Source: Psammoneis japonica (Eukaryota). Taken from it: a DNA stretch of 48,983 bases. The notes under the pieces were generated by a model, which ran no database searches, was not told where the DNA came from, and worked only from the letters and a program-made list of their open reading frames with translations. The DNA lies in assembly GCA_008632985.1 (NCBI GenBank), contig QPGO01000240.1, forward strand, positions 62,001 to 110,983, in the 5' to 3' direction. Below are positions 1-28,736 of the stretch, piece by piece (positions within the stretch are counted from its first letter, which is position 1; each line of letters begins with the position of its first letter). The position numbers were made by a program, and so were the translations under genes.

Positions 1-51
1 CAGAACATTGATGCTCACTGCACACGCTCTTTGCCATTCTGTTTCTCCCAG

Positions 52-5886: not shown

Positions 5887-5906
5887 GGCCTGTTCCAGCT
5901 CCAGGT

Positions 5907-6182
5907 TGACAGAAATTGAAGGCAAATGGCAAGAATTCAAACAACAACTCCTTGCTGCTGTCTAAATGGCAGATGAGTCTCCGCTCAGAGACCGTCACAG
6001 GAGCCGAAAGACGTGTGAGTCGGTGTGATCGGGCCACTGTTGTCATTCTTGTGAGCCTTGTGGCTCGAAAGCAAACTACATCGCGCGTGAACGCGCGGAA
6101 CTAAAGCACACAAAACTGTGTGCGGTAAACTAAACAGCGCGCGATGCTTTGCGCGCATCCAAATCCTGTTCAAATCCTGTCA
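5907..6182 (-). repeat. 3' LTR of element 1
   Basis: Direct repeat of 12743-13018. Preceded on the minus strand by purine tract GGGGAG (6183-6188). Confidence 0.97.
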
Positions 6183-9100
6183 CTCCCCAGTTTGCTTGAG
6201 GAGCCACAGAAACAGATTCGACTTCGGATGGAATGAAGTTCCAGAACATGAGGGGGCGGAGAAGGTCCCAGATTTGGGAGTGACCCCAATGCTTGCTGAG
6301 AATGTCAGCAGGGTTGCGGGAGCCTTCGATGAAGTGGAACTCAAGGTGACCAGAGGCAATTGCCTCACGCACACGGTGGAACGACAGTGCGGTGTGTCGC
6401 TTGTGTAACTTGGAGTGCGGGATGGTGGCACTGTCTACAACCGACTTGTTGTCACCGAACATGTAACTGACATTACGGATCGGGACGCCAAGGCAGCGCA
6501 GGGTGATGCGCAGGTCGACAATCTGCTCAACACAATTCCTTGTGGCAACAAATTCAGATCCATGGGTTGCAGTCTCCATGGTGGCTTGTTTCTTGGAGAA
6601 CCAATCAGCCGGGAATTTGTTGAGGAAGTGGAGCATTCCCATGACAGAGCGTCTGGTGAGCATGCAATGGCACAAGTTTGCATCGATGCAGTGGGTGGCA
6701 GTGACGAACTTGCCAAGGGGCGGTGGAGCGTCCTTCGGGATCATCTCTTCTGCTTCACCATACACGGAATGCATCCATTCGTAGGCCGGAGCAGGGAGAT
6801 CCGAACAGTCGGGCTCTTCCGTGCGAACGCGGAGAGCACCATGTCGCATCTTGGAGAGGTGCCCACAGACGCGTTTGGCACGATCCAAGTGGCCTTGACG
6901 GGGCGCAGCTCGGAAGCTAGAGAGTGACATGACGGCCGTGGTGATGTCAATTCGACCAAGGGACACTGCCCATTGGAGTGAACCAACAAGAGACTGGAAC
7001 TTGTGAATGCCATCGGGTCCCAGCAGTTCGGAAGTGTCCAGTTCGGGGTGGTCACCCTTCTCTAGAGGTGACAGGGCGTTGGTGGTGGGTTTCTCCCCAA
7101 ACAGTCGGGCGCAGCTGTCGACCATGCGCTCGATGTACTTGCGCGGAGACAGGCACAAGGTTCCGTCGGGGTCCCGGGAAAAGTCGCAACCCAGATGGAA
7201 CTCAATGGGTCCCGCACCCTTGAGCTTGAACTTGCACTTTTCCGTGAGAGTGTCGACGAAAGATTGAGGGTCCTTCATGGCAATGGCGAGGTCATCCACA
7301 TAAACGGCAATGTGTTCACAGTGGTCGCCGTTCCTGCGCATCCAAATGTCGGGTTCGGCGCGGCAGGGGAAGAAGCCTTCAGCTCGCAGGCAGTCGGCGA
7401 AGCGCTCGTGCCAGCGGAGACCGGAGCTGCGGAGTCCATACAGTGCCTTGTGGATGACAAGGATGTGTCCTTCGAGTTTGCCAAATTCGGGTCCAGCTGC
7501 AATGTAAAGCTTCTCCTTGGTGGTGGCTTCAAGGCAGGCATTGCCAATGTCGGTGGCCCATGTCTCCAGCTCGTTGAGTTCGGCCAGGAAAATCATCAGC
7601 CGAAGGCCACGAAGGGAGACTGCTCCGGAGCAGACACTGTCGACAGGTGCGTCCGTGAGGTGCCCGTCGGCTACGAGTCGTGCCTTGTGGCGACCGTCGT
7701 GTTTCACGTCGTACACCAGGTGGGGCTCGGATCTTCTTGTGTCCCGCAGGAGGAGTGGAAGACTTGAAGGGCCCGCAGTCATGGAAGACTTCGTATTCGT
7801 CGAGTTGGTCCATCTCGAGATTAGTTGCGTCTCCCCACTTGCGGTTGCCGTTGCGTTCGTCTAGTGACATGGCGTGTTTGCAGTTCCGGGGAACTTCGTG
7901 TCCGCACTTGTGGCAAGGTGCAGTGTTGGAAGGAGCGAAGCTTGGCTTGGTTGGCCATGCGAAATGGCTTCTTTTGGCGCCTCGCGATGGTGCGGAACCG
8001 CTTCCATCCATCCGTGTCGAGGAGTCCGTTCTCTCGTGCATAGATGGCACAGGTGACGGGGTCGTCCTTGGCGATGATGGCAAGAGGCTCGGACGTGATC
8101 TCCCCACTTTCCCATTCAAGCATGATGTTGTAGCTTGAGCCTTTCCAGGTTGGGTCGTGAGGCTTCAGAGGGCCTTCGTGTGACACGATGCGTCGAAATT
8201 TCCAAACAGTGGTGTCTTCGTCTTCTTGCTCAATGTGATTCATGATGTCATTGCAGGCAAGGACTTCCTCGTGTTCGTCATTGTTGACAGAGCAGACGAA
8301 CTTAGTGAGCTCGGGATTGCCGTTCACTTTCCATTCGTGGTCTTCGACGGCCTTGACGATGCGAGCTCTGTGGCGTTGTCCGTCCTCTTGTGGCTGCATG
8401 AGGAAGGTACGTCCAATGATGTCTTGCGGATCGAAAACTGGCATCTTGGGTGTCCTGATCTCCCCATCAGGAGAATCGACGGGGTTGTCGTCATGGCGAG
8501 ATTTGATGATGGGTTCAGGTGGCTCCCCATCAGGAGGATCAAGACGCAGGTTTCGAACGGCAGGATCGGGGGTGGCGGAGCGAACGTTGGACCGGTGGAG
8601 GATCTTCTGAGTCTCGTCAGATAGAATCTTGAAGGTCATCTGGTGGCCGATGTGCTCAGCAATGCCAACGAAGCGTCCACGCAACTCACGAGATTCGGAC
8701 GGCCAATCGGAGTCATCGAGGTGGAAGCACACTGGTTCCCACCAGTGAAAGCGAAGCAATGGGCTGATGTCCGGGGTGGATCCAGTGAGAGTCTCGAGGG
8801 GCGTGCGCCAGTGGAGACGTGGGGACGCTGCATGGTTGAGCACGAAGCACACGCACATGAGCGCCAGCAGCCATGTGTGGGCGGGCGAACCAAAACGGTC
8901 CATGACAGTGTTCGCCATGCGCTTCACAGTCTGGTGTCGACGCTCGGCAAAGTTTTGGTGTTGCTGGTGAGGCTCACTTTGCCAGCTGGAGATGAAGAGG
9001 GCGCGTAGGATCCCGAGCACTTTGTTGCTGATCTCAACTTGAGCACGGTCGCTGATGAGTTTGGATGGGGCACCACGTTCACGGATCTGATCCTCGAGTG

Positions 9101-11801
9101 TGTTGACAAACTCTTTGTCCGTCTCAGTGCCGCAGACGTCAGTGACNNNNNNNNNNNNNNNNNNNNNNNNNNNNNNNNNNNNNNNNNNNNNNNNNNNNNN
9201 NNNNNNNNNNNNNNNNNNNNNNNNNNNNNNNNNNNNNNNNNNNNNNNNNNNNNNNNNNNNNNNNNNNNNNNNNNNNNNNNNNNNNNNNNNNNNNNNNNNN
9301 NNNNNNNNNNNNNNNNNNNNNNNNNNNNNNNNNNNNNNNNNNNNNNNNNNNNNNNNNNNNNNNNNNNNNNNNNNNNNNNNNNNNNNNNNNNNNNNNNNNN
9401 NNNNNNNNNNNNNNNNNNNNNNNNNNNNNNNNNNNNNNNNNNNNNNNNNNNNNNNNNNNNNNNNNNNNNNNNNNNNNNNNNNNNNNNNNNNNNNNNNNNN
9501 NNNNNNNNNNNNNNNNNNNNNNNNNNNNNNNNNNNNNNNNNNNNNNNNNNNNNNNNNNNNNNNNNNNNNNNNNNNNNNNNNNNNNNNNNNNNNNNNNNNN
9601 NNNNNNNNNNNNNNNNNNNNNNNNNNNNNNNNNNNNNNNNNNNNNACCACTGGTCATCGTCAGTGACAGAGTGATCGAGGACGGAAGGGTCCCATGTGTC
9701 ATCACCGGCAAGGATGACATGGGGCAGGGTGTCCCATTCGGCGTCAGTGTGGGGGTCGCATGGCAACACAAGGCAGGCCAGCCTTGATGTCAATGGGGGT
9801 GACACAGCCATCAGGAGCGGCAATGCGTTGCAAGCCATTGGGCACCTTGACAGAGCGATCGTTGACATCCTGTTTGCACCATTCGAGCTGGCCGCAGGAA
9901 TGGATGGTCTTGCCCTTTCCCGTGCATGCGCACTGATGGAGGATGGCGATGACGGGACCACGCTGGGTCTCAATGATGGCACCAGCGGTGACAATGGGGA
10001 TGTCCACCAATTGATGATCGTCGGATGCCCTGAACGTCGACTTGGCGAGAGGTGCATGCAATGACGCGAACGTCGTCGCCAGCAATGCCGCCGTTGGCCC
10101 CACGATCGACTAGAGCGCCAGTGCGTGTGGAGCGATGAGCAGAGGCAGAGCAAATGACATTGTGGTTGTTGACGCGGCGGCAAGTGCGGCCGTTAAGTTC
10201 CATGTCATCTGCAGAAGCTGGCGGGGTAGAGGAAGCGGCGGATGGCCCCGGTCGACTGGCATTGGGGGCTTGGTTAGGAGACAACAGACGTTGCAGATCA
10301 CCGGGTGGCAGTGGCTTGCGCTTGGTGAGGTGCGCCAGGATGGGATCATCCGAAGTGGCGTCCACATGTGCAGCGGGGTCACCACAGTCAGCAGGAGTCG
10401 TGTTGGACAAGTTGACATCACCGTCACTCCCAAGGTGTTGGTCGTGAAGGTTGGCCGTAACAGACTCATGGCAGTTGCTGGCTCGCGGGTTGCGGGGAGG
10501 CGGACGAGAGTGCTCAAGGATGATCGCCTTGGAGGAATCGGGCAACGAATCCCAGAGCCGTTGGTGGTCGGGAGGGAGACGTCTCCATTGGACACCGGCG
10601 AGGCTGGGACCACGGGTGCAGGCAGCATTGGCTTGAAGGACGTCAACGTCGCTGTCAATGTCGCAGAACACATCGTCGGACGGTTCCTCGGAGCAGACGT
10701 CGTGTGCGTGCATGGCGCGTCGGGGAGCTCGAGGTGTCGTCTTGGGTTGAAACGTGCTGTCGCACTGAGCTGCCGCGGAGAGGAGCAAGCCACAGTGTTG
10801 ATCGCATGTGAGGCTCTTGCCACTCTGCGCACGATGCTGATCAGCTTGGTTCTTGACAGCACGGAGTTCCTCGACAGGGTGCACGGCATTCTCGAGCATG
10901 ACGCGCTTCTGTCCTTCAGAGAAGTGGTCGCTGGCGGGGATGAGTGCCTCGCACTTGCGCAACTGATCTTGCCAATGAAGGATGAACCCGTGGGTCGGAC
11001 CTTTCCAAGTGCCATCACCAAGACGTGCGGTGGTGAGGTGCGTGAGCAGGGTGGAGGACTCGACAGATGCACGGGTGGAGGCAAGCGCGCATGCAGACAA
11101 GGAGCGGTGGACGGTCTGTGCGTCAGAGGACCCCACATTTTCGCGAATGAGAGCCTTGCCCTTGTCGGTGAGAAGGATGCGTTCGAAGACGGCGAACATG
11201 TGCTTTTGCTGTTCAGCAAAGAGCAGTTTGTCTTCGGGGCTGGTCGGTTTGTACGACGAGTCTAGAATGCACTCGACGTCTTGGGCACGGGCTTGTGCCA
11301 CAAGTGAGGTGTGCCAAGTGTGCCACTGCTTGTCGGATTTGAGAGCCGTGAAAGCGGTGGGATCACGCTTGATGCCTCGCTTGAAGTCTCGCACCGGGTC
11401 GCGTGCCTTGGTCGGGTTGGTGACATGTGGAGGTGCAAGGGGTGAGCTGCCGATGGACAGAGAGGACATGCAGTCCGGGCTGAGGCGGCAGGCAAGGAAC
11501 TCGTCATGCGCGAACAAAGAGGAGTCGTTGGCAACGTCAAGACCTTTGTGTGCTTTGACAATGCACAGGCCACCAGTGCTGCTAACATGTTCTCATGACC
11601 ACGGGGCAAAGGGATCACATTGGCGCCGTTGTCGCACTCAAGCGAGTCGATTTGGGACGGCATGAACGTGAACAGTTCCTGACACGAGTCCGTGCCGTCT
11701 TGGGCCAAAGCCAAACGAAGAGGACTCCCAGCACCTTGGGCAAGCACGGTTCCAACAACGTGCTCGAAACCATCGGTTTGTTGCTGACGAGTGAGAACCA
11801 T
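6130..11801 (-). pseudogene. gag-pol of element 1 (several frameshifts, assembly gap, Tyr->Cys/His decay)
   Basis: Gag starts MVLTRQ at 11801 and contains DFKRGIKRD. Protease ALVDRGANGG near 10100. Integrase LISDRAQ and SEPHQQHQNFAERR. RT HKARLVADG, LYGLRSSG, AVYVDD. RNase H MFGDNKS and NPADILSK. Frame changes near 11540, 10025, 7925 and 7725. Confidence 0.93.
9147..9645. other. Assembly gap (N run) within the integrase region
   Basis: Run of N. Confidence 1.
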
Positions 11802-12731
11802 GGCAGACAAAAGTGGTGTCAGGACAATCAATTCTGGTTGGGGAAGCGAAGGCAGACTCGAAACTTGGGCGAGAATGGACTTGACTTGAAACAGACTTGA
11901 CTTGAAATCTTGAACCATCTTAAAATCAGAAGTCGCCGGGCTTTGTCATCCCGTTCGTTGTTGAGTGCTAAACTTCCCATCCGGTCCGCAGAGTTGTGCC
12001 GGCGCGTCCGAACCCGCAGCTGGCGGCGCTTTGGGTTGCTTGCGAGCAGAGCAGCGGGTTGTAAACCCCTGCAGGCAAGCTGACCAGAGGTGGACAAGAC
12101 CCCCGAACCGTTCTCATTTTATGTCGGTTGGATTTCCCGATCAGGCTGGCCAGTTGACGCAGGCGCCAGGTGCTGTGGACGAACGAACAAACGCGGGAAA
12201 GCACCCTCGCCCCAACGCAGGCTGCAATCACGGCTGCTTGCTCTCACAGTCGTCCTCGTGGACCTGGGCAGAACTGCAGAGCACCAGTAGTCCGGGGTAG
12301 ATCAGGTACAATGGACTCGGTGTGCTTGTAGAGTGGCAGCAAAACCGCAGTCCGAAGAGTGGGTGCAGGTTCTTGGCCGTGAAGATGTGCACATATATAT
12401 ATGTCTTCAGCGACGAAGATCCTTGAATATGTAGGGTTCTTGACCGTTAACCGATGAATAGGTATATCAAGGGATGAGGATCAAGGATAGACTTGGATAT
12501 GACCGTTGAATGTATGTCTTCAGCGATCAAAGGTAGTATAATCAATCCAGATATCCAGCGGTAAGGAGACTTGACGGTGACGTTAACTTCCTGCCGATGC
12601 CCTGGTATTGAATGCGCGTAGACTTGCCGATGTATGTAGAATATATACGGAGGTCCACGTAGAATTGAAATAGCGTCGTTGGTAAATCAACGACGACGAT
12701 GGCGGTTGCTCAATGGGTTGACAATGAGCAA

Positions 12732-12742
12732 GACTGTTAATC
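12732..12742 (-). other. Primer-binding site of element 1, complementary to a tRNA-Asn(GTT) anticodon arm
   Basis: Minus strand reads LTR-CA|GATTAACAGTC, the complement of GACTGTTAATC, a tRNA-Asn anticodon stem-loop sequence. Confidence 0.65.
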
Positions 12743-13018
12743 TGACAGAAATTGAAGGCAAATGGCAAGAATTCAAACAATAACTCCTTACTGCTGTCTA
12801 AATAGCAGATGAGTCTCCGCTCAGAGACCGTTACAGGAGCCGAAAGACGTGTGAGTCGGTATAATCGGGCTACTGTCATTGTTCTTGTGAGCCTTGTGGC
12901 TCGAAAGCAAACTACATCGCGCGTGAACGCGCGGAACTAAAGCACACAAAACTGTGCGCGGTAAACTAAACAGCGCGCGATGCTTCGCGCGCATCCAAAT
13001 CCTGTTCAAATCCTGTCA
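12743..13018 (-). repeat. 5' LTR of element 1
   Basis: Direct repeat of 5907-6182 that retains more TpA. Followed on the plus strand by TSD CAGGT. Confidence 0.97.
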
Positions 13019-14204
13019 CAGGTGCTCCGCGCGGGTTCGATTCCCATCATTTGGAAATTTGTGCATTTGGCGCAATTGACTTTTTCCAAATCCGTTTTTT
13101 GCCAAATCGAAGGGCAAGCGCACACTTTGCATGCATTTTTGGGTGTACACTCACCTTTTGATTTTTGAAACGATCAAAATTGAAGGAGTTAATTGCGCTG
13201 AACTGCGCAGAAAATCGGCCTCTCGCGTGATGAAAAGCAGAGCACCTGGAGCTGGAACAGGCCAAAAGGCAGGGAAATGATGCTGGCTGGAAGAAGTGAA
13301 GTGTTGACACAACAGGGCACATCAGACCATTCTTGTTGTGGGGCAGCAGAGAGTGGCAGCTTGGACATCATGTGGTTCATTGGAGAGGCATTTGGGCAGC
13401 TCCAATGCAGCTCGCAACAGCAGGAGGAAGCCAAAAGCGCGCCAAAAGAACTGCTGCAATGTCAGCTCTGACTCAGAGTTCATTTTCCATGCACAGACAG
13501 TTGCTGCCACACATCCAGAGATGGAAAACCACTTACATTGTTCGAACGAGTTTGTTCCCCATTCTGCAACAGCTCTCTTGCAGCCGCGTGTTGGATGTAA
13601 ATGGGTGAAACAAACACCGTTGTCAAAAACTCTCCACTCTCCTCGCAGGTGAGCAGGGTGCACATTGCCCTCAGACATGCTTACAAAAAATGGCGGGAAA
13701 GGGAGGCAAACTTTCTACGACGAGTTCGTATTTCACAAAAACGTATGTAGAATGTCGTACAATCTGTACTGAGATTGCTCGTCTATCTTGCTGCTTCAAG
13801 GTTTCTCGGTTTATTCTCGCTCCAACGTCAGGGAAACCCGGAAATAAAAGTCACGAGCAGAAGGTATTTCAAAGTACCCGGAGCCGATGTCTAAATGACA
13901 TTCTCGGGATGCGTCACTCCCTTTTAGGGCACGACCGATTCAGCGACCCCTTATTTATGTGTCATGTCAAGGTGTATTACGTGGCGTGAAACCGATGAAC
14001 GTGGCGCACCCTCGTAGAAAGGATACTGGAAATCTGGTAGAAATCAATCGTAGTTTTGTCAGCTGTTCCCCGTCGAAGCATCGGTCGTTTGTTGAAACCT
14101 TATCAAATGATCACTCGTTTCTCGGTCGCATTCCATAGAGGTTGAGAGCTTTCCACAAATCGTTCTTTTACCCATCATCATTACTATCGGCGTTGCTTTT
14201 CACC

Positions 14205-14795
14205 ATGAACTGTGTTTTCGATATCTTGGGAGTGGCGATCCTGCCAACGAAGGCTCGTGCGGCTGTCATGTCTCAGACAAAGTGTCGGAGGGAGGCAGCT
14301 TTCTCACAAGCGAGCGCCACTGGTTTCTTCAACTATGCTGAGAAGAGCAAGAGCGATGATGATACTGCTTCGACTGTATCAACTTCCGAACAAGATGAAT
14401 TCTTTTCGAGCAGTGTTGTTACTTTCTCGGAAACATTGGTCACCCATGTCTACACGCGACCAAGGACCACCAAGGAGGAGAAAAGAGTTTTGTTTTACAC
14501 GGACGACGAGTACATGGAGTTCAGACTCGACGCACACTGCAGCCGACGAAGAAACAGGGTCGTGAAGTTTGCCGATTCCATTGTGACTGATGTGTACGAT
14601 ATTCCGTCTAGCAGAGGCAAAGCCAACCTCTACTACAGTGAAGCTGAACTACAAGAGTAAGTATCAATGTTTGAAAGTGCCACCTTTTGACTTCCAGAAT
14701 GAAAATGCGGCGCTAACACCTTGCTATTTTCTTCCTCGACGAACAGATTTCTCGATGAATTCGTAGCTTCTTTGGATGTGAGTTCGGAATACTGA
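14205..14795 (+). CDS. Hypothetical protein with two internal VxF..VT.V...P....L(F/Y)Y(T/S)..E repeats; exons 14205-14656 and 14747-14795
   Basis: ATG at 14205. GTAAGT donor at 14657, CTAAC branch site, AACAG acceptor at 14746. The spliced frame continues ELQEFLDEFVASL to TGA. Confidence 0.75.
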
Positions 14796-15240
14796 GTCAG
14801 AATGGTCATGCTCTCGAGAGTTCAGACTTGCTCACTGCTTCGCGTAGCAGATTGAGTTGAAGGCGGTACAATTACTGAGATTACTGAGTGCGGGCTCAGT
14901 TCAGACGAATTGTTCGAGTTTCGAAAACAACGCGTACACGTTCTCATATACTAGAGAACGCATCACGAGAGGTACAACGAAGCAACGGTTGCTTTGCTGT
15001 ATCTCCGTGATTGCGTCTCCCTTCAAGACGCCCCTGAGGTTCTTCTCTTGGTGCTAACACAGGAACTAACAGCAGCAGGCACAATTGCGCAATACTACAC
15101 ATATAAGGCTCTGTATGCAGAAAAAGAGGATTCTAAACCCAGTCCAAAATACAGCTATGGCATATCCTCTTGTCTGTCGAACGAAAATAGAAATGCAACT
15201 AACAATACTAGAGTCCTTTGCTCGATCATCATCTCCTGTA

Positions 15241-17051
15241 TCAACGCGGTCGTAGCAACCGAGAGTGCTTTTCTTTGCGCCTTCTACTTTCAAGATAGTC
15301 AGGTCTAAGTGACAGGTGGGTGAGACTCTCCCGCCCGTCCGCTGAAAGGAGCTTGTTGTGTTTGGGTGACAACGGAAGGTGCTTCAAATAGGCTTGGAGC
15401 ACATTGGGGTCCTCAAGGAACAGCAAAGCCGATCTATCGTCGCCAAAAGGACCGGGCTTCGTTGTCGTCTTCTTGTTGAGCTTCTTGAGAAGGACGTCGA
15501 TACTGTACAAACATGCTTCTCCATCAAATGTTGTAGTGACTAAGCTACTATCCTTGATAAGTTGGCTGCCCAAGTACACTTCCTTTGAGCTCATGAGAAA
15601 GGTAAAAACTCGTTCTTCAAAGATTGGTCCTTGAAATTGCTGGCTCCAAGGCCGCAATGGCTCCATACCAACCTCTTGGTAGTTGAGAATGGCAAAACTC
15701 CTTTGTCCAATCTGATAATGCGTTTCTCCGGTCTCAGGATCTGGATAGAATCTCGAAATGTGTTCATCAAGGTTGTCCCGCTCCGTCTTGCTGGTGGCCT
15801 TGGTAAGGACGCATTCAACAAATGCGTCAATCGTTGAGTTCAGGTAGAGGTCTGGCCTCCTTGCTGCAGTCCCTGCATTGATGATCTTAGGGTTGAATAG
15901 ATGCGTACCGAGCTTAACACCCGCAAGAATCTTATACAGCTCGAATGTCAAGACATCTTCGACAGGCCCTCCGAACGGAATGTATTGACCCCAACTCATC
16001 AGCGGCAATCCGTGCATCAAAAGCTGTTGGACACCGTCGAGACCACCATTCAATAGCATAAAGGGAGACGACTGTTCTGGTGTTACCTGAGAGATGAAAG
16101 ACTCAAAGAGGAGCTGCGAAATAATCTTGTCTTCACTGTCGCAGAGTCCCTTTTACGGAGATCATCGAGAAGCATCGAATCCTTAATCTTGTACAGGAGA
16201 GGGCTGATATCAGTGTGACGAGTCGTGGGAAGGATGCGAGTTTGCATATCCTTGAATTCCTCGCTGGAACGAAACTCCTCCGAACCCAAAAGATAGGCAA
16301 ATAGGTCGTCCGCGTTCTTGTTTTCTTCGTTCTTGATTTTTGGGGCGAGGCGCTCGGAAATCTACATGAATGGAAAAATGTGCCCACCACAATACGAGCG
16401 AACGCTTTCTACCAGCTTTCGAATCTCAGCTGCTTGATCAGCAGTCGCCGCTCCCTGCGAAAAGTAAGCGACGACCCCCTCATCTTCAAGCATTTGCTCG
16501 TCGCTCAAAAACAACTCGTCGGTACTAATCTTTCTCTTAAAATTCCCAGACGCAGTTTCAAATTCAGGGACACCAGCTCCAATTGTCGTGATTTTGTGGC
16601 CTTGATCGTTTTTCAGCAGCGGCGTAAATACCGCGGCGCCCACATTCGTCTGAGTTTCGTCAATCAGGAAGTAAACTTCTTCCTTGGTCGAAGACAATTT
16701 CTTCACCAATATATACACTCTTTAATTCAAAAGCGCCGCGGTTTCGAAAAACCAAACTTTCTTTCCCGCTTTCGTGAGATCTTTTTCTGCGAGGAGGTGA
16801 AGCAAGGTCGTCTTACCTGCGCCTTTGCATCCGTTGATGTGATACGGGGTTTCCGGGTTGGCTTTTTTGAGGATCTTACTACGAAGTTGTTGACGCTGCA
16901 CGACTAAAGGCCCAAATCCAACCTCCTTGAACGTTTCGCGTGTTACCATGCTACTCCATCGGCATTCAGCGGGGATTTCCATGCTCTCCATCGATGCTCT
17001 TCGCTTCCCGGCAAGTACAGTAGGCGTGCAGCGCCGTGCTGAGAGACCCAC
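15241..17051 (-). pseudogene. Disrupted P-loop NTPase + PD-(D/E)xK nuclease gene (Crinkler-type NTPase-REase architecture)
   Basis: Walker A GCKGAGKTT, Walker B YFLIDE, YCGGHIFP, and C-terminal RRPDLYLN...FVECVL. In-frame stops at 16722-16724 (TAA) and 16362-16364 (TAG), and a frameshift near 16150. Ends are approximate. Confidence 0.7.
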
Positions 17052-18008
17052 ACCTGTTCTAACTCAAAAAAGAGTCGCTTCCTTACTTCGAGAGGTTTGA
17101 CTCTTCGAGCGCTGAGAACTGTACAGTCCAGCTGAGGACACTTCTTCTCTACAGCGTAAAAGGAAAAGCCCAGTTGGCAACAATAACAAGATGACGGAGT
17201 GATAGGAGTGATGTCTAATGTTGGTCTTCACTCTAGAGTACAGGTAGGTGTGCTTCACGATAATCTCAAATCAATGACGTACAAAGACAGACAGTGGGGT
17301 AAGGAGTGCGAGCGTAGTAGTTAAGTCGTCTGAATCAATTATTTTTTTCTACAGTACGATCATGACGGATTTCATTTACATATAATGTATATCTTTTATA
17401 ATTTATATTCACATTCATTAATGTTGAAGAATGAACCCAGTTGTGTGTCTCTCCAAATTTTTGTCTACCGCCTTCGCCGTAGTTTCGATACTCATCAGAT
17501 TTCAACGGCACTCTAAGTATGAGATTCTACAGCTAATATATTTATACAGAATTTAATACTGTAGCCAAGTGTGACACTCACTACAACATGAGTGTCTCGC
17601 GGGACAGCAAACGAAAATTCTCGGTGTCGTTTGGTCTGTTGCCAACAGTGCGACACAACATAAAGCTGTTGCTGTATTGGTATGTTGCGTGAGAATCAAG
17701 AACGTTCAAACCGCTCAGCAATAGTTTGTCACCAGTCTTTGATTCTATCACCGCGATACTGTATTGACATTTGTAGCCAACAAGTTTGACGAGTCATCAA
17801 ATCACTCAAACGACCTGAAATTTTCGTGGTATTTTCTCTCCCGTATTGATTCTACGTAGATTCTACAGCGACACTCGGAGTCGGACAAAAACGGTAGTCG
17901 TGTTTTCCCGTTTAGTTGCATCCAACAGATAACACAGTCAGCGTCGTACCTGATCAATCCAATCTCTAGAACAATCGGCGTGTGAACGAGGAGTGCACTA
18001 TTAAAACC

Positions 18009-18763
18009 ATGTCACCTGCACCAACTTGTCAGAATCCCGTTCACGACGAAATACCATTGGTAGACATGGCCTCGGCAGAAATCGCAGGAATGCGCCTCAA
18101 CGACGAGCAAGGCATTGCATATGAACACACTTTTCCTCCAGCGTGCTTGGCGCTTTTGAGAGACCTTCCAGGGAACCATAGATGTATCGATTGTGGCGGT
18201 CAGGATCCTCAATGGGCGACGGTTAGCTATGGAGCTCTTTTATGTCTCTCATGCTCCGGACGACACCGGAGTCTCGGAGTTCAGGTGGGTTCTTGGAAGG
18301 CTTTGACAACGTTGCCTTAGACGATACTGTTCTGATGAGGGGTCTATTTTGTCTCGAATCAAAGCTAGAGTCGATATGAGAGTCATTCACTCTGTTTTTT
18401 CTTTTTTGATCCTTCACATGTCAGGTTTCTTGTGTAAGATCAATAACTATGGACAATTGGTCCCCAGCAGAGGTACTGGCAATGTTGGAAGGCGGAAACA
18501 CTCAACTGCATAATTTTTTTGAACGACACGCGTTATGCGAAGAAACAAAAGTAGACGAAGACGCTCGAAAGAATGCCAAGCGCAAATTGATACAAGGCGA
18601 CGTAGTCAGTCTGAGGTACAAAACCAAAGCGGCTGAGTTTTATCGAAAACAAATGGGGTTACACGTGTCAAAAGTCATGAGAAAAGGAAAATACAAGGGA
18701 AGATCAGAGTCTAGGAGGGTTCGGTATCGGGCCCTTGCAGAACGAAATTCAACAGTGTTGTAG
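18009..18763 (+). CDS. ArfGAP-domain protein (paralog 1); exons 18009-18284 and 18425-18763
   Basis: Zinc finger CIDC..PQWATVSYGALLCLSCSGRHRSLGVQ, spliced to VSCVRSITMDNW..MLEGGN..RYKTKAAEFYR. Confidence 0.92.
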
Positions 18764-19184
18764 CGAAGTGCGACTATTCTAGAAAAGGTTAAACAGATTC
18801 ACTGATTCCTGAAGCGGTTCACTTGTTTGTGATGCAGTTATCAGACTTGGACAGCCTTTCTTCACTCTTTCTCCAATGTCGCTTTTCTTCCAGTTCGGTG
18901 TTTCTTTGTGGATAACCTCTACAATGCCGACAGGGATAAACTCGAGTTTAGATGAATTGATGAGAGGGATGAGGTGAGAGGTGACCAGAAGGAAGCGTAA
19001 CAGCACCGCGCTCAATGCCGCTGTTCCTTTTGCTCTGTGAAGGTTCTGTACAAACTGTGCTGTGTTGGATGAACGATCGTGAACTGTGACTTCCACTGAG
19101 GATCTTGTTGAGGATGACATCGATCACCTGGAGCGAATGCTTGACATGCTTCCTCAGCTGCCCCAAAGCACACAGATCCCGGGG

Positions 19185-19379
19185 ACTTGTTATACCGATG
19201 TATAACTGTAGATATCGAAAGAGCTGATGCTCAAGGTTGTAAACTAGTAGCTGTTGTTGTTGCAAAAGTCGTTGACTGAAAATTATGACTGCAATATCGA
19301 GCAGAGTTTTGATGGCGGAATTTGAAAATTGAAGCGCGCGATTACGCGCAGTCGACAGGTAGATTGACAGACGTCAACT
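19185..19379 (-). repeat. 3' LTR of element 2 (TpA-retaining copy)
   Basis: ACTTGTTATACC...GACGTCAACT, a direct repeat of 26459-26653. Confidence 0.95.
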
Positions 19380-19398
19380 CTCCCTCTCAACCGTAGAG

Positions 19399-22300
19399 CT
19401 ACCAGCCTGAGAGACTCAACCGACCAGATTCAAACTTGTCAGTAATAAGTCCCTTCGTAAATTGATCAGCTAACTGGGAATCAGTTCCTACAGGCTCAAT
19501 CCGGATCTCAAGAGCCTCAACCTTGGCACGGAACCAATGATGGGGAACACCAATGTGTTTGGTGCGTGGAGATAACTTGGCCATTTTTGCAAACTTGAGG
19601 CACGCCTGATTGTCTTCACAAACCACTGAAGAAGGGATTGCACCATCCTTTACATCTGAAAAGGCCTTGGACTTGGTGGTGGCAGGGGTCTTGTAATCCG
19701 TGAGACCGAAAACATGACATTTGAATTCCTTCAAAATTTCACGAATCGGAATCAGGTCGCGCATCGCAGCCGACAGAGCAAGGCACTCGGCTTCCACAGT
19801 GGAGAGTGCCATTTGCGTCTGCAGCTTAGAAACCCACAAAATGGGACAATCGCAATGCAAGATGACACATCCGGTGCGGGACTTGACGCTGACCGGATCT
19901 TGAGTGTCTTCGTGACCGTAGAGGCCGGCGAAGTCGGTGTCAACGAAACAATCAACACGTTCGTTGTCGCTAGGACGTAGATAGAGTCCCTTGTCCTTGG
20001 CACCTTGTAAGCAGCGTAGAATGCGCTTCACCGCAATCGCATGAGAATGCTTGGGAGCACATGAGAAACGGGCGGCTTGATGCGTGGCGCAGCAGACATC
20101 TGGTCGGGAGTTGGATGATGGATGCATCAACATGCCGATGACGGAACGGCAGTCCCAGTTCTCGTCGAATTCGGCTCCCTCTTTATCCGCATGACATGGA
20201 GAGGCAGTGCTGGGAGTGGGAGAAGAGCGGCAATCTTCCATGCCAGCTGTCTTGAGGGCCTTGTCAACAAGTCCAGGCTGGGTGAGGAGGAATTCCTTGG
20301 GTCCGGTTTTGCGAATCTTGATGCCGAGGAAGTCACCAACTTCTCCCTCGTTTTGCAACTCGAATGCATGGCGTTGTTCGTCGTCTTGGATGCCTAGAGC
20401 CTTGATCTCATTTTCTAGAGCAGCTCCATTCTTGCCAGTGAGGACAGTGTCATCAACACAGACTGCACAAATCACACCGTCCTTGAAAAATGGGCACGGG
20501 TCGACTTGCGACTGGGTCCATCCACGTTCCAACAATCCTTCACGCAGCTTGTCAAAGAAGCACTTGGGAGCTTGCTTGAGACCGCAGAGACTCTTGAGTG
20601 GCTTCAAGACAACATTGGATCCCGAGCTGGGAGCGAAACACTTGGGTGGTTCAATGCAAACGTCTTCCGTCATCTCGGCCTGCGCAAAAGCATTGGTGCA
20701 ATCGACCTGACGGGTGGTCCATCCTTCTTGTGGGACAGCACTCAACACGAGACAGACAGTCGACCATTGGACCACTGGAGCACAGGTCTTGAAGCAGTCA
20801 ACTCCCTCTTTTTGTAGATCTCCTCGGACACAAAATCGCGCTTTGAACTTGAGCGGCGTGCCATCCGGCAATCGTTTCAACTTGAATGCCCACGTGGACT
20901 TGAGCACATTCATTGACTTCTCCCATTTCACAAATTGCCACGTTTTACGATGGACGAGAGCAGATGCCTCCGTCTTCATGGCTTCAATGCATTGCTCAGC
21001 AAAATCACCCGAGAGAGCCTCACGAACATTCGGATCATCCGCATCGCGTTTGACTTTAGCGGCGTAGATCCGCGGGTCCTGAATGTCCAAAACACCCAAA
21101 TCACAGTCAGTCTGGATCTCAGCCAAACAGGCAAGCTGAGCCTGTTGTCCTCCAACATCGTCAGGGACAACAGAAGCCAGGTGTGCTTCGTCGGTGAAAC
21201 GAGCAGTTGTGTGCGTACCCTTGTTCGACCTTTGGGATCGGTGCACCCCTGGTGTCTCAGTCGTGGATGAAGGTTCAGGTGGGACTGGAGCAGTCGTGGA
21301 TGGGACTGACGTGCCCGGACCATTGCCAGTGGTAGATGGCGGACGTACGACTGAAGGTGGAGGATCGTCAACCGGAGGCGTTGGCGATGATGGGTTTTCA
21401 AGCGACGGTGTTTGTGGCGGTGGTGTTGGTGATGGATCAACTGCAGTTGTTGGCATCGATGGTGTAGACGGCGGTGGATGTAGAGTTGGCAAAGGATCCG
21501 CTGCAGGTGTTGGTTTCTCAGCGGGTTTTGGCAAGTTCTGCTGCTGTTGATGTGCAGCGCGAATGTTGCATTTCTCAGTCTCACATCGTCATTTCTGTTC
21601 AAGTTCAGCAGGAGCAAGCCAGTCGTCTTGAAGGAACAACGGTCCATCGGACAAGTCCAACAGAATTTGAGTGGTGTTCTCCAACCACAATTCTTCCCAG
21701 TGGTCCGGCGGTTCGCTCTCCCTTGCGATCGAAGCAACCGTGGTGAAGAGATCGTCAAACACGATGTGGCACTGGGGAGCAATGGAGCCAGCATTGAGAT
21801 TGAGGACCAATGGTGCCTCACTGGCGTGAATGTGACTGAGTCCAAGAAAGACACCACGCCAAGAACGCGGCTGCCAACAGGGAAGTTTCTTGCCCTCTTG
21901 TAATTTGGGATCCAAGACGCAGACGGGACAACCCCAAACGTGGAGATCGCGGAGGCGGTGGCGTGGGATGGCAGTGCCAGTGAAGATGTCGGCGGGACAC
22001 AGCCCATGGGCGCCAGGAGCAGCACCACAGATGTGGGCAGCACAGTGTGCTGCCATGGGCCACAGAGAGCTGTCGATGCCGCCACGCCAGTGAATCGAAG
22101 CATGGAGGATCATGGCACGAGCCACATTGGAGATGGACCAAATGGAGCGTTCGGCAACACCATTTTGATGATGAGCGTTGGCACCACAAAAGTGCATGCG
22201 TTGCTGGGAGTTGTGGATGTGGGAAACGAACTGGTTGGCCTTGAAAGCGCCACCGTCGGTGAGGCAAGTTTGGACGATCACGCCGTGTCCCATTGCCATG

Positions 22301-24262
22301 GTCTCATGTGCCTGTTTCGCTCGAACAGTCTCGACAGCGGAGAAACCGACTTGGTGTTCAATGTGGATGTAACTAGAGGCGTGGTCGACAAAGACACAGC
22401 TGCCAACATGCTGCTGGGAGGACGGTTTGCCGCATGAATCATGGGTGCGGCCCTTGAGACGTCATTCGAAATGGTCGACGCTGATGGACTGGCCCGGATT
22501 GAGATGGTCAGCCTTCAACGCTCCATCGCGCTCAGGGTCGGATTTGTGAATGGCAGACTTCAAAGAACGGCGATGAGCCTTGGCATGTTTGCATGTGTCG
22601 CATTTTGGAATGTCGCATTTGGATGCTGCCTTGAATTTCATGGCCTCGAACGGATGGCCGCGGAGCAGAGCTTGGATCTTGGGAAAATGTAAGTGCCCAA
22701 AGCGCGCATGCCATTCATTGAGAAGCTTCTGTCCAGCAGACAGATTGAGGTCATCCGGGTCGCCAATGGCGCTCAAATTGACTTGTGGTGCATGGACAGA
22801 ACCGAGAGTCGCACAGCCAACCGGCAAGTGGGAGCGCTCATTGCACTCGAGCGTCAACTCCGGCGTGTCTGCGAAACAAACCTTGAAAATCTCACTGTCA
22901 CCCCAAAAATGTCCTTTGATGCTGTCTGCATGGAAGAGACGTTGTGGAGAAAGCAGGCGAACCTTGGAGGACGGGACGAGACAGGCGCGGAGCTGGGTGG
23001 CAATTTCGTGACCCTCCCTGGCTTGAAAGGTCCACGTGACGGTGCCCTCACCAGTGATGCACATGCCGTCAGCCATGCCACCAAGGCGGAGTGGGGTCCG
23101 GCAGCACTTGATCAGACCATCAAAATCTTTCTCGTCAGGAGTGATGGCCTGCGAGGCACCAGTGTCAAAAACAACCTGGAGATCACTTGGTCCGACATGA
23201 AAGACCGACATGAAAGAGGGCCTGGGGATCAGCGGCGAAACGCGTAAGTTGGGTCTCCCCGGAAATGGCACGAAGTGCAGCGGAGGTTGGCAAAGCGGGG
23301 GAAGCCAATGGATCCTCTGCAGCGAGCTCCGGAGCATTGGTGCAGTCGACAAAGTAGCGGGCGTGACACAAGTCAGCAATGCCGAAGACATCCGGGCTCG
23401 AGCAGTCAGACTCGCGGAAGGTGTCAGCATCGAAGAAGCATTCCGCATGGATGGGGAGCTCCGTGTGCGCATCAAAGAAATCGTCGTTGTCACTCTTGTC
23501 AACCAACTTGGAAAGTTTGAAAGGTAGAGTGGCGGTGTCTTGCTTGTCTCCCTCTGAGCGCGCCAACTCACATTTGAATTGTCTGACCTTGACAGCATGG
23601 CACTGGACGAACGCACCGGGCGATGGATCGACGCGCTCATCAAGAGCGGAGACAACTTCGTATGTTTGAGAAGAGAGGCGGTCCAATGATTGAAAGGGGT
23701 GGGGAGGGACAGCGCCGCCGCACACAAAATGCCAAAGCGCAATCGCGCACGCAATCACGCCCCAACGACAGGGGCAGCGACACAGCGCAGGGCGGTGCTT
23801 GAGGCGACGTTCACGGCGGGGAGGAGGGGGGGGATCATCCTGGGAGCAGACGAGCCACAGGAGACCTTCCCAAAGCATTGCAGAGATCCAAAAGAGCGGG
23901 AGCTTGAGGAGATCCCACAGCAACAGATGGTGAGCTTGGGGAACCGGTGGATCCGGCGCGGGGTCGGGTCCGGACTCGGCATCGAAGAAGAACTCAGCCG
24001 CAGGAGCCGGAGCACCCGAAGTGGGGACACTGGATGAAGGAGGAGTCGTGGGCGGAAACACAACAATGGAATCGTCCCAAGACAGGTCGTCACATGCATC
24101 GAAGCAATCGCTGAAGTCGTCAGCATCTTCAGGTTCGACGGTCTCGACTGCAGCTGGTGGGCGCTCCCTCTGAGACGCAGAAGCGGGTTTGCAGGAGACT
24201 CGTGCGACAGACGGGTGGGAGGAGACGAGCCCTCGACCACACAACAATGGAATCCAGTCCAA
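19399..24262 (-). pseudogene. pol of element 2 (PR-IN-RT-RNase H)
   Basis: Protease VVFDTGAS. Integrase WHARFGH..CDTC, VDHFE, NAHHQNGVAER. RT FKARFCVRGD, LCGLKQAP, AVCVDD. RNase H CEDNQAC and QLADQFTK. A 13-bp tandem duplication at 23192-23217 causes a frameshift, and in-frame TGA stops occur at 22462 and 21589. Confidence 0.95.
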
Positions 24263-25956
24263 ACAAGCTCGTCCTCAGCAGGAGAGGGCTCGGGCGCATT
24301 GGTTGGGTCTGGAGTGGTCTGAGCGGGTGGCCCAGGTGGGATGCCCGAATCTGGGTCGTCAATGGAGGTAAGATTGGCCGCAGGTGGTTCTTGTTTCGGT
24401 GGTTTGCGAACATGATCTGACTCCTTGTGATTCGCGTGCATCCCCCGAATGCCGGTGTGCTTGCAAGTGCACTTTCCACAGAAATGCGTGGTCAAACCGC
24501 ACTTGTTCACGACGGGTTTGGATGGGTCTGCCGGACGGGTGCAACGATGGGGCTCGTTGGTGAGCAACTCCTTGAGTTTGGCTTGTTTGTCAGCAGGGAC
24601 AGTGTCAACCGTAACGGAAGATGCAGGAGGCGGTGCAGTGGCAGGTGGAACCGATGGGTTGTCCTTGCGACTGTTCTGTCGACGCTGCTCACGTTTCTCT
24701 TTCTTGCGCTTCTGACATTCGGCACACTTGGGACACTTGGGATCGTTGGCCCAGTGGTCCGGAGCACCACATGCATTGCAGGCCCCTTTTCCGGTCTTGG
24801 AAGTGTTGTTGCTCTGAGGGAGCTTGGTGGAAAGTCCGGGCCAATCCTTGTCGGTGACGCAGAAGCGATGCTCCTTCTGCAAGAAGGAAATGCACGCTGT
24901 GGGCCCTAGTTCATCACAGTCGGAGTCCGCGGCAATCGCCTTGGGATCGCTGAGGCAATGCTTGTGTTCCATGGTCGACACCTTGTCCAACTTGGCGCAA
25001 ATCTTGTGATTGAATGCCTCACATGAGGTCTTCTGGCACTTCTTGAGAATGCTCGACCCGAGGTCGATGGGTAACGCACACCCGGCTTGGAGCAGCTTGG
25101 TGAGACGGAGAGCTTCGGCAGCGAACTCAGTCACGTCCTCACCCGGGTAGGATGCAAGCGACAGAGCATCGAGGTCCTCAGCGGCTTGGGCAACATCATG
25201 CATGGCAGACGCATTGCAAGCATCCAAAGCCATCATCAAACAGACTTGACTGGGGCAGTGCTCAAAAAGATCGTCATGACCGAATTGGACCTCGATCTTC
25301 TCGCGGAATCGGTGGGAGATTCTAGACTCAACAACCAATCGGGAGAGAGCGACATCGTTGTGCTCGCAATCGTCACAGGCAGTGAAGTCCTTGGCGACGT
25401 TGGCGCGATGAAGGCACTCGGCAATCACCTCGTCGACCGTAAAAGAGTGGAGATGGTCGAACAGCGACACAACCTTCTTCTCGAGCTTCACAGCAAAGAA
25501 GTTCTCCAAGCCATGCTCCTTGACAAGGGCACGGATAGCCTGAACGAAGTGGGATTGATCGAGCTCGTTGGAGGTCGTGTCAGTGAGCTCGAGGTTTCCG
25601 TCAAACTTGACGACGAGTGTTCCGTCTCGAGCTTCGCGAAGAGCACGCTCGATGTGCGGTAGAATCTTCTTGTCGCGAGACTGGTTGGTTGAGCGGCAGG
25701 AACGAGGTAGCTTGGGCTTGTGGTCATCGTCTGACGGAGAACCGCCCATGTGTCGCCCATGTTCTGGATGGATCCCTCCACGCCTTGGAGGAGGCAGAGG
25801 TTGATTGGCTCCTGTGGTGGAACTGCTGTTCTTGCCAGCGGGAGTGGTGGGTGTCCCATTGCTGGTTCGAGAAGGTTGAGGAGTCTGACTCCTCTGTTGT
25901 GGAGTCTTGGTGCCCTTGGGGGTCTTGGACGGAGTCTTTGACGGCGTTCCGGCCAT
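24150..25956 (-). CDS. gag of element 2 (3' limit approximate)
   Basis: Long ORF from ATG 25956 with YPGEDV and a zinc knuckle CNACGAPDHWANDPKC, followed by a second CGKC...H cluster. Lies upstream of pol. Confidence 0.85.
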
Positions 25957-26440
25957 GGTGGATTTGAATCAATGCGCAGAACTTGGCACTGAAGCTGCGT
26001 AGAGTTTGAAACACAAACGGCAAAATGAAGTTCTTAATGCCGCATCGTTGGGAGACTGCCGCAGAAGCTCAACAATCAATCGGCAACAAGAGCATTGTCG
26101 TCAAACAGCGTGAGAGGCAGGTCTTGACTTGGCACAGACTCGGAGAGTTCGAAACGACTCAATCCGGGTTTGGCATCGCAACGGCCGAAAATGACGACGC
26201 TTGACGATGATGATTCCGGCTCCGTGGATCGGTTCCGGTGGCGGGAAAATGCGTGTGAGCCTGTCGACGAAGGAGGGAGGCTCAGCTGTGCGCAGTGTCG
26301 ACGTCGACAGACTGGAGACGTCTGTCGAATCGATGAACGGCGATTCCGTTTGAAGCGGATGATTGATGGCTTGAGATGACTGTCGCGTTCGACGAGAATG
26401 CGGTGGATTGGTGCAGTTCCGGTTAAAGACTCCACACACT

Positions 26441-26458
26441 GCGTTTGGGCTCACAACC
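26441..26458 (-). other. Primer-binding site of element 2, half-tRNA-iMet type, carrying a TA->CA mutation
   Basis: Minus strand GGTTGTGAGCCCA versus the copia/Ty5-type PBS GGTTATG(A/G)GCCC. The plus strand has CACAACC in place of CATAACC. Confidence 0.85.
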
Positions 26459-26653
26459 ACTTGTCATGCCGATGCATGACTGCAGATGTCGAAAGAGCTG
26501 ATGCTCAAGGTTGTAAACTAGCAGCTGTTGTTGTTGCAAAAGTCGTTGACTGAAAATTATGACTGCAACATCGAGCAGAGTTTTGATGGCGGAATTTGAA
26601 AATTGAAGCGCGCGATTGCGCGCAGTCGACAGGTAGATTGACAGACGTCAACT
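26459..26653 (-). repeat. 5' LTR of element 2 (hypermutated copy)
   Basis: Differs from 19185-19379 at 9 positions by my manual alignment, all TA versus TG/CA. Confidence 0.95.
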
Positions 26654-26658
26654 CGGGG

Positions 26659-28310
26659 AAGCAGAGCTTAAAAAGGCAGAAGAAACTCTGGACTTGGAGG
26701 CAGACAGTTTTGTCCATTCAGCAAACAAAGTGAGGCACTGTGCCTCAAAATGATCCCTGGGAAGCATGGCAAGGCTTCAAAAAAGGCAAAAGAAACTGTG
26801 GACTTGGAGGCAGAAAGTCTTGTCTGGGGACAGCAAACAAAGCAACACACTTTCTTGAACCAAAATGCAAGCAGAATGGGATTGTTTGACATCATGCATT
26901 GGGACACTTTGTCAAGTTGAGTTTGTCAGCAGCTTTTTGAGAAGATGGGATGACATTGTGGAGAAAGATGAGGGCCAGTCAGCAGAGGCTGGTTGTTGAT
27001 GAGCCACGAAAAGAGCAAGATTTCACTGGACCCACTGCAAGCTCATGTGCCATTGCTGCTCCAAACCACCCACTTTTGGAGAGCTTCTAAAAAAGATGAG
27101 TTGCTTCAAATGCAGCAACATTGTGTGAACAATGGCAGAACAACATTGTGTGTCTTTGAACACCCAGCATGATCCACATGTGGGAAAATTCTGGAGCTGA
27201 AAATCTTAAAAAATTTCCTCCCACCAAGTGCAGCCAAAATGTCAAAGCCATCTTGATTTGATTTGTTTCTCTCTGTGAGAACAGGTGCTGAAGAAAGCTC
27301 AAGCCAAGCAGGCTGGCAGAGGGTGGGCATGTGTCAAGCACGGCTGGGTGGTGGGCATGCTTGTTGCACGTGGCATGCATTGGTGTGGGTGCAGCTGCCA
27401 CTTTTTTCAAGCTCTGCCTTGCCCACCTTTGGGTTTGTAAAAAAAGGTGCTCACAATGGCACAGTGCAAAGCCTCTCTGCTCTCCCCCGACACTCTGCAG
27501 TGTCATTGTCTTTGCACTTGCTTTGCCGCCAGCGAGCATCTCTTGACTGTTTTTTTTTGTGCAAAGAGCAGTGCATGAGCAGCCAGAGTGGCAACTGCTG
27601 ATCTTGCTCAGTGCCAGGGCTTGAGCAGAGAGCTCCTTTTTCTGCATGTTTGGGCCACTCTTGCTTGTGAAAACAGAGCTTGGTGTGCACGCCGTCACGA
27701 CAAACCTCTCTCCAGTGCTTTTTGCAGAGTGGCGCGCAACTCTGCAAAACTAGCAGCAACAAGAATGCAAAGAAGTGGCAAGAGGAGATGACAGGGGCAC
27801 AGCTCTGTGCCAGCTCCAACAATCAGAAAAAAAGAGCAGCTGTGATGTGTCACACATGGGAAGGGGGGGGGCTGTCATGTGTGCAAAGAGTGCAAAAAAA
27901 AAAAGAGCGCCAGCACTCGAGGCTCACTCGAGTGTGTTTTGTGTGAAAGCAGCCAAGGGAGCAGTGGCACGAGAGTGCAAAGAGGGCACACAGGAACAGA
28001 TGGTGGTTGACTCACTCAAAGAGCTGTGAAAAAAGTGAGGCCCGAGGTGTGTGGCAGACAAGCAGGAGAAGCTGGAGGCTGGGCAGTGTGGGCTGCCCTC
28101 CTGCGCGAGGCACAGGAAAGAGATTGGTGGGCAGTTGCAAGAGGATCAGAGCGAGCAAGGCTCAAGTCAAGACTGAGAAGTTGAGAAGCACAAGATTGGG
28201 TGTAGAAGAGTGATGAGATGAGCCAAAGAGGTCAGAGGAGAGTTGTTTCCACATGCGGCATCAGGGTCCATGTGTGCAGGGCTGCATGCATTGACAGGCA
28301 CTGACAGCAG
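26659..28310. other. Degenerate TpA- and CpG-depleted block; begins with an imperfect ~100-bp tandem duplication into which element 2 inserted
   Basis: Very few TA and few CG. AAAAAGGCA.AAGAAACT.TGGACTTGGAGGCAGA occurs at ~26670 and ~26780. Composition returns to normal at ~28310. Confidence 0.75.
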
Positions 28311-28736
28311 CATACAGTCTTACAGCATTGAAAATACTTGTGAACGTATGCAAAGAAAGGTTAAATGTCGTTGTGACACACCGTTCATTTCATTTGCTTC
28401 GTTTATGAATACAAGAATTTTTTCGTACTATGACTGATGACTGCTGCGTAACGGGAATTCGGAGATTCACGTCACAGATCTGTATGCTCTATCAGATAAT
28501 TGTTGTAGAACATTTATTAGGGGCAATACGGACACAAAGTCGGGAATTTAGTTCGTGGCGGGAAGAAGTGCTGTTCGTGCCACCTCAAACCTGCTCATTT
28601 CCGCGAACAAAGTCGAGTGTTCGTGTTCACACACCGCTCGCGTGTTATTCATTTTATCTAAATTGCTATCCGCGTTCTCATTCGCAACCTGTACACAAGA
28701 AACAGAAACACTTATCGTTTCATTCATTCGTCAACC

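Follow-up and report, generated by a model that had tools for sequence, protein, structure and literature searches.

We find that a 48,983-nucleotide stretch of the Psammoneis japonica genome (contig QPGO01000240.1, positions 62,001 to 110,983; hereafter the window) probably bears the footprint of a mutational process that changes TpA to TpG or CpA after integration, in silent chromosomal domains. The clearest record of this process lies in element 2, a Ty1/copia long terminal repeat (LTR) retrotransposon on the minus strand at 19185..26654. Two copia elements, older remnants and an NDH2-like open reading frame (ORF) are all depleted in TA, and we infer their silence from the decay of CpG. The process acts on chromosomal DNA after integration, taking A:T to G:C at TpA on either strand, and is far faster than ordinary substitution and confined to domains of kilobase scale. 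An initial annotation had described the signature as a candidate undescribed genome-defence system. However, a preprint on the chlorarachniophyte Bigelowiella natans has shown the same signature experimentally (Mettrop et al., bioRxiv 10.64898/2026.01.13.699255, version April 2026), and the window is a second instance, probably from a diatom, of a phenomenon first described in 2026.

Divergence between LTRs of single insertions

Element 2 has the gag-protease-integrase-reverse transcriptase (RT)-RNaseH order, the paired LTRs and the 5-bp duplication that define Ty1/copia elements, and its intact target-site duplication shows that it is a single insertion. A gap-free alignment of the two LTRs (196 positions) shows 9 differences, all of them TA against TG or CA, as the initial annotation had stated. 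Read on the plus strand, the left LTR has TA at all nine sites where the right LTR has CA (5) or TG (4). The left LTR contains 13 TA and the right LTR 4, all 4 being common to both, and the 12 CpG in each LTR are unaltered. The probability that all nine differences would be of the TA type by chance is ~6e-13, and the altered letters comprise 9 of the 26 in TA and 0 of the 170 elsewhere (Fisher p 3e-9), demonstrating the specificity of the process for this dinucleotide. The TG and CA products nearly alternate along the LTR, and a reading by hand of 16 LTR events gave no rule for a flank preference beyond TpA. Position 19296 exists in three states: the left LTR keeps TA, the right LTR has CA, and other copies have TG. 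As the LTRs of one insertion differ at nine TA sites, the changes were made at the DNA level after integration, as had been proposed.

The process acted after insertion independently in different copies. Element 1, also a copia element, belongs to an unrelated family, since the RT sequences of the two elements share only 22% identity. Thirteen letters differ between its LTRs, of which 7 are TA against CA or TG, and at two adjacent sites one LTR has TG where its partner has CA. Overall 11 of the 13 letters are of the A>G or T>C type; the remaining 2 are CpG>TpG differences, both confined to the depleted LTR. The 5' LTR has lost 2 of at least 14 ancestral TA sites to conversion, compared with 9 in the other LTR. 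Across both elements CpG is nearly intact (observed/expected ratio, o/e, 0.88-0.91) while TA is almost gone. LTR pairs are natural clocks, and the loss of 9 of 13 TA in the element 2 LTR with no other LTR change, together with the near-normal CpG of both young elements, shows that TA loss outruns both ordinary substitution and methyl-CpG decay.

ADAR-like A-to-I editing of the element RNA, or an error of reverse transcription, could in principle be fixed on integration, and ADAR-type enzymes do prefer a U before the edited A, as noted in the B. natans preprint text (10.64898/2026.01.13.699255). This origin is nevertheless extremely improbable. Both LTRs are copied from one template, yet they differ at nine TA sites, and sense-strand T>C changes (8) are found among the sense-strand A>G changes (23) in the coding region described below. 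Flanking remnants, the NDH2-like copy and a second family are also affected, with borders that ignore the ends of the elements.

Polarity and consequences for the reading frames

The LTR differences alone carry no direction. An opposite polarity, or no mutation at all, would therefore have to be considered, either as RIP-like (repeat-induced point mutation) CpA>TpA change in the TA-bearing parts, as a family that is poor in TA, or as an assembly artefact. The spared end of element 1, with a TA o/e of 0.88 that lies above the 0.6 of the flanks, would fit such a view. Three independent lines of sequence comparison, from outgroups, from sites carrying both products and from family composition, nevertheless indicate that TA is the ancestral state.

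The first line comes from proteins. Pfam matches to the element 2 frame (gag_pre-integrs, SH3_retrovirus and RVT_2, the last with E 4e-32) lie in copia order on the minus strand, and PF07727 is present in 119 of 120 relatives among the matches listed. We compared the RT-RNaseH region with 40 relatives that are 56-66% identical. Tyr makes up 0.6% of the element 2 RT and 2.4-4.5% in these relatives, compared with 5.2% and 1.0-2.6%, respectively, for Cys. The motifs that had been quoted as carrying Cys in place of Tyr (CVDD, LCGLKQ, GVDC..TCAPV, KRILRCL and EAEC) are all present, and the consensus of the 40 relatives has Y at the Cys positions, although at GVDY the majority residue is F. A second comparison, of the element 2 pol with 16 long relatives, gave 405 conserved columns, at 68 of which element 2 departs. 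These departures are split between TA>TG (23), TA>CA (8), CpG-type changes (9), other transitions (3), transversions (14) and multi-step changes (11). TA>TG or TA>CA thus accounts for 31 of the 43 polarised single-step transitions and the CpG type for 9 of 43, which together with the outgroup Tyr and the double-product sites upholds the earlier claim that TA is being lost. In element 1, the RT differs from 19 relatives at 29 of 253 conserved columns, and the TA type is the largest class (10).

The second line rests on sites at which one copy has TG and another CA. A TA ancestor accounts for each such site with a single step and any other ancestor with more, so these sites imply TA. Thirdly, TA o/e lies between 0.41 and 0.91 in 80 of 80 related copia loci from metagenomes, compared with 0.14 in element 2, which speaks against a TA-poor family. 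No hypermutated relatives were seen in 80 of the 120 listed proteins (P0001-P0080) or in the 80 metagenomic loci, although this does not imply their absence, as Tyr formed part of one of the two patterns searched with. For the question of an artefact we turned to three sequencing runs, all as contigs, of one sample that is possibly the assembly's own. A single contig of run X1 spans 26654-29000 with 4 differing letters and thus places the depleted remnant and its border in read-derived sequence. Taken together with the outgroups that carry Tyr where the window has Cys or His, an opposite polarity or an absence of mutation is scarcely credible.

The polarised changes in element 2 pol also define the context. 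There are 0 A>G changes outside TpA compared with 23 TA>TG, and 2 T>C changes outside TpA compared with 8 TA>CA, and a T precedes the codon at every Ile>Val, Thr>Ala and Met>Val change. The claims of TpA specificity and of action on both strands are borne out by this spectrum and by the roughly equal rise of CA and TG across the depleted parts. Surviving TA is relatively rarer in ATA and TAT contexts, a trend uncorrected for ancestral frequencies, and a tetranucleotide comparison with host DNA is confounded by composition. Pol eta has an established A>G bias at WA motifs, and a Pol-eta-like error-prone repair synthesis in heterochromatin, which had been listed among the candidate mechanisms, would affect both strands. 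WA includes ApA, however, and ApA is undepleted (o/e 1.05-1.26), with no A>G there or anywhere outside TpA among the polarised changes. Near-saturation with no LTR transversions (0 of 170 letters) is also unlike error-prone synthesis, and we consider this route very improbable.

At the protein level the process replaces Tyr by Cys or His, Leu by Pro and Ile by Val. The element 2 frame contains 7 Tyr, 91 Cys and 93 His in 2186 codons, and the interior of the element retains 50 TA in 7078 bases (TA o/e 0.14, CpG o/e 0.88). Loss of TpA cannot create a stop codon, and so long dead reading frames stay open; stretches of 711-733 codons persist, and the in-frame stops, at minus-strand codons 21591, 22464 and 23757, are TGA in 3 of 3 cases. 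These could have arisen from CGA through CpG decay. The NDH2-like ORF has Cys or His at positions of Tyr in yeast Ndi1, and looks like a gene copy killed by TA loss that would still appear intact to a gene caller. This carries a warning for annotation, as dead elements and gene copies in which no stops are created keep long open frames and are called as genes.

TA-depleted domains and their trigger

Depleted domains were defined from TA counts per 250 bases and from TA positions (Table 1). TA o/e is 0.02-0.18 within them and ~0.6 in the flanks, and the longest TA-free run extends over 2050 bp (within 1751..5906), compared with a mean TA gap of 23 in unique DNA. The loss is therefore regional, and its borders cut through elements 1 and 2, ignoring the element ends. 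The left edge of domain 2 is graded (19573-20416) and its right border falls between 28203 and 28313. CA and TG are raised about equally in the depleted parts, and no lasting TG/CA strand skew or strand-coordinated tracts were found in 500-bp windows, as expected of a strand-symmetric process. ApT is undepleted, as is TC (o/e 0.93-1.32), and GC is higher in depleted DNA (0.55 vs 0.48). In the old remnants (1751-5906, 13019-13533 and 26655-28250) TA o/e falls to 0.02-0.06 and CA and TG o/e reach 1.4-1.9; here TA loss and CpG decay converge on the same dinucleotides. Within 13019-13533 the CpG o/e is 0.60 overall and falls to 0.18 within 13251-13500.

Table 1. Coordinates of the features discussed in the text (positions in the window; o/e, observed/expected).
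Feature	Position	Strand	Remarks
NDH2-like (Pyr_redox_2) ORF, non-transposon	12..1214	+	0 Tyr in 400 residues; TA o/e 0.07 over 1-1750
TA-depleted domain 1	1..12287		TA sparse to 12120, dense from 12288; extends past the left end of the window
Old remnant hosting the element 1 insertion	1751..5906, continued 13019-13533		TA o/e 0.02, CpG o/e 0.15 (1751-5906)
Copia element 1	5907..13018	-	family unrelated to element 2
LTRs, element 1	5907-6182 and 12743-13018	-	277 nt
Target-site duplications, element 1	5902-5906 and 13019-13023		5 bp
Assembly gap within element 1	9147-9645		
Spared 5' end of element 1 (5' LTR and leader)	12288..13018	-	TA o/e 0.88 over 12251-13019
Undepleted island between domains	13534..19184		TA o/e 0.59; covered by spliced X2 contigs
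Target-site duplication, element 2	19180..19184 (left copy) and 26654-26658 (right copy)		5 bp
3' LTR, element 2	19185..19380	-	all 13 TA kept, spared
gag-protease-integrase-RT-RNaseH frame, element 2	19399..25956	-	one frame, 3 in-frame TGA stops
TA-depleted domain 2	19490..28312		53 TA observed vs 465 expected by base composition
5' LTR, element 2	26459..26654	-	9/13 TA converted; otherwise unaltered
Older unidentified remnant adjoining element 2	26655..28250		TA o/e 0.06, CpG o/e 0.20, CA and TG o/e ~1.7

Between the two domains, contigs of run X2 over 14072-19182 skip 14657-14746 and ~18281-18420 (90 and 140 bases) with GT..AG ends, while an X1 contig reads straight through both stretches. 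These skips suggest that run X2 is probably transcript-derived and that the island at 13534-19184 is probably an expressed gene. The putative spliced gene, on the plus strand, ends about three bases before the element 2 LTR. On the other side of element 2, immediately beyond the right LTR and inside the old remnant, lies a 45-nt direct repeat (26670-26714 and 26780-26824; 91% identical, 110 bases apart). For the one remnant ORF tested, at 27087-27698, no Pfam family was found. Further along, otherwise ordinary host DNA contains two TA-rich patches, at 37501-37750 (34 TA in 250 bases, o/e 1.9) and 44751-45000 (29 in 250, o/e 1.4). Searches with two host ORFs gave no near-identical protein, which argues against B. 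natans CCMP2755 as the source, and the closest named relatives are diatoms. The best named match of a phosphoglucomutase is from Epithemia (50% identity), and an AAA_16 protein falls nearest a mostly Bacillariophyta cluster, with matches of at most 28% identity that include one from Cyclotella cryptica.

What sets the process off in these domains would be silent chromatin carrying cytosine methylation, not the repetition of sequence. Silent chromatin appears the better fit on several counts. Depletion and CpG decay occur in the same domains, which also take in DNA that is not repeated and DNA that is not from transposons, and which end before the putative expressed gene is reached. Moreover, the domains have their borders within the elements, and the stretch of element 1 that is repeated most escapes depletion. 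The alternative is that repeated copies, through their homology, trigger the same DNA-level loss of TpA in the manner of fungal RIP, and the initial annotation had indeed called the process repeat-targeted. Word depths, summed over contig pieces at least 80% alike and not to be taken as copy numbers, are 430-1115 for element 2, 54,000-188,000 for element 1 and ~57 for single-copy DNA, so that both elements are multi-copy by this measure, and RIP fades towards the ends of a duplication much as depletion does at the graded edge (19573-20416). However, the bin with the highest summed depth in element 1 (12276-12919; 188,016, again a sum and not a copy number) is its spared end, one element 2 LTR is spared as well, and the remnant at 27088-28375 has a TA o/e of 0.06 at single-copy depth (55-67 at 80% likeness). 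The NDH2-like ORF, which is not a transposon, is also depleted, and in B. natans the main hypermutable region is single-copy according to the preprint text (10.64898/2026.01.13.699255). Targeting by repetition is thus not supported, and we regard a homology trigger as unlikely.

The contigs also provided a view of other copies. In run X1, 9903 contig pieces matched 9700-29000, and the element 1 family is extremely abundant in the sample; the X1 contigs total 141 million letters, and the genome is probably large and repeat-rich. Places at which X1 contigs differ from the window include 867 transitions and 169 transversions. Contexts were classified for the 40 listed of 1050 differing places, and among these 40 there are 5 TG/CA double sites and 8 sites with TA in the window and CA or TG elsewhere. 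In single-copy DNA at 13443-13444 the window has CA and an X1 contig TG. A single ancestral TA may have changed in two directions here, between alleles or between strains, which would hint that the process has been active recently. Nine further sites differ in this flank, and four of them (15104, 17084, 17123 and 17245) have TA in the window and CA or TG in X1, a number that is not significant alone.

As to the chemistry, enzymes of the ADAT2/TadA type prefer T before A. Our leading guess is a DNA adenine deaminase of this kind, which would convert A to hypoxanthine, read as G; we base it on this preference and on the same proposal having been made for the identical signature in B. natans. It is possible instead that thymine is the target, and that a TET/JBP-type enzyme oxidises the T of TpA in silent DNA to 5-hydroxymethyluracil (5hmU) or 5-formyluracil (5fU), with mispairing with G or mis-repair then leading to T>C. 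TpA is self-complementary, so T>C at TpA leaves an identical footprint, and 5hmU and 5fU may be sufficiently mutagenic for such a route. A dinoflagellate TET/JBP enzyme makes 5hmU mostly on transposable elements, and older work on C. cohnii, as quoted in the same paper, found a preference for TA and TC (PMC11572971). Against this, the base-resolution map of Breviolum minutum shows no sequence preference (PMC11071213), and a TC preference predicts a depletion of TpC that is absent from the depleted parts. We would give the thymine route a slim chance.

Several observations weigh against our interpretation, or against parts of it. Of the 68 polarised departures of element 2, 25 are transversions or multi-step changes, so ordinary divergence contributes. 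Conserved Tyr codons in element 2 pol became Cys in 13 cases and His in 2 (p 0.004), which differs from element 1, where the RT (6130-7782, minus strand) shows 4 Cys and 3 His, and none of the flank or strand rules tried explains this asymmetry. The chromatin trigger has just two supports, the overlap of the domains with CpG decay and the positions of the borders. The segment 13019-13533 is depleted though its neighbours, the spared end of element 1 on one side and the putative expressed island on the other, are not; one would have to suppose in addition that its TA had been lost before the insertion of element 1. Nor can sequence alone tell deamination of adenine from a process directed at thymine. 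Finally, support from reads for the variants is partial. It holds for the contig over 26654-29000 discussed above, but at many places in element 2 no contig carries the letter of the window, so that the reads confirm this particular copy only in part. The remaining pieces that resemble element 2 diverge by ~16-19% and are not simple sister copies, and the contigs share a single sample of origin, possibly with the assembly itself.

Comparison with known systems

The initial annotation had set the process apart from RIP, CpG decay and RNA editing, and the polarity, the retained CpG and the unequal LTRs agree with this. Methyl-CpG decay resembles it in yielding TpG and CpA, and is also present in the older remnants of the window (CpG o/e 0.15-0.20). 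It acts on CpG, however, and the near-intact CpG of elements 1 and 2 beside a near-total loss of TA shows that the TA process is separate and much faster. ADAR and APOBEC enzymes similarly employ deamination against retroelements as a defence, and ADARs share the preference for a preceding U. They act on RNA or first-strand complementary DNA before integration, on one strand and leaving LTRs identical, whereas in the window both strands are changed after integration and past the ends of the elements. RIP of ascomycete fungi is alike in making dinucleotide-specific transitions on both strands that kill transposons, in tracts that fade at their edges. In RIP, C>T change, mainly CpA>TpA, makes TA and stops and lowers GC; in the window the polarity is opposite, as TA is destroyed, no stops are made and GC rises. 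The outcome would be an irreversible inactivation of retrotransposons, like that of RIP with the opposite chemistry.

A literature search found no report of TpA hypermutation in diatoms, and in the part of the paper seen, a mutation-accumulation study of P. tricornutum reports no TpA or transposon hot spot (PMC6604790). The portion of the B. natans preprint available makes no mention of diatoms, stramenopiles or LTR elements (10.64898/2026.01.13.699255). It describes TpA hypermutation of integrated viral DNA in mutation-accumulation lines, in which giant-virus and virophage inserts acquired 231 de novo mutations, 230 of them A>G or T>C and every one of these 230 on TpA, at a rate ~1000 times background and in some lines only. 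The larger hypermutable region was single-copy and transcriptionally silent. The B. natans genome contains 124 clusters of windows poor in TpA and rich in CpA and TpG, reverse-transcriptase families are enriched among its TpA-poor genes, and an ADAT2-like deaminase is proposed as a candidate enzyme (all from the text of 10.64898/2026.01.13.699255).

A genome defence that destroys TA was thus first reported in 2026 in one organism, and the second case comes from a distant lineage and concerns retrotransposons, which suggests that the system is widespread among marine protists. It also makes the hunt for the enzyme comparative. A bolder proposal, which we put forward tentatively as possible rather than likely, is that TpA editing is common to Rhizaria and Stramenopiles, that silent methylated chromatin directs it and neither repetition nor a viral source does, and that near-complete loss of TA is its routine effect on retrotransposons. 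If so, the enzyme could be found among the genes for DNA-acting deaminases or thymine dioxygenases common to both lineages, and the TA-poor, Cys- and His-rich 'open' frames of protist genomes would be a fossil record of the system.

The likeness between B. natans and the window is close. Common to both are A:T>G:C changes at TpA with TpG and CpA as products on both strands, confinement at the kilobase scale, low TpA with high CpA and TpG, and RT genes among the depleted sequences. As in B. natans, the substitutions between LTRs in the window are almost only A>G or T>C (9/9 in element 2 and 11/13 in element 1) and are concentrated on TpA, with a high local rate and regional borders. The two cases differ in the kind of record and in the targets. 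In B. natans the mutations were measured de novo in mitotic lines, whereas the window holds a footprint only, one that is near saturation; and where B. natans targets giant-virus and virophage inserts, the process recorded in the window struck LTR retrotransposons together with older remnants and a gene copy that resembles one of the host.

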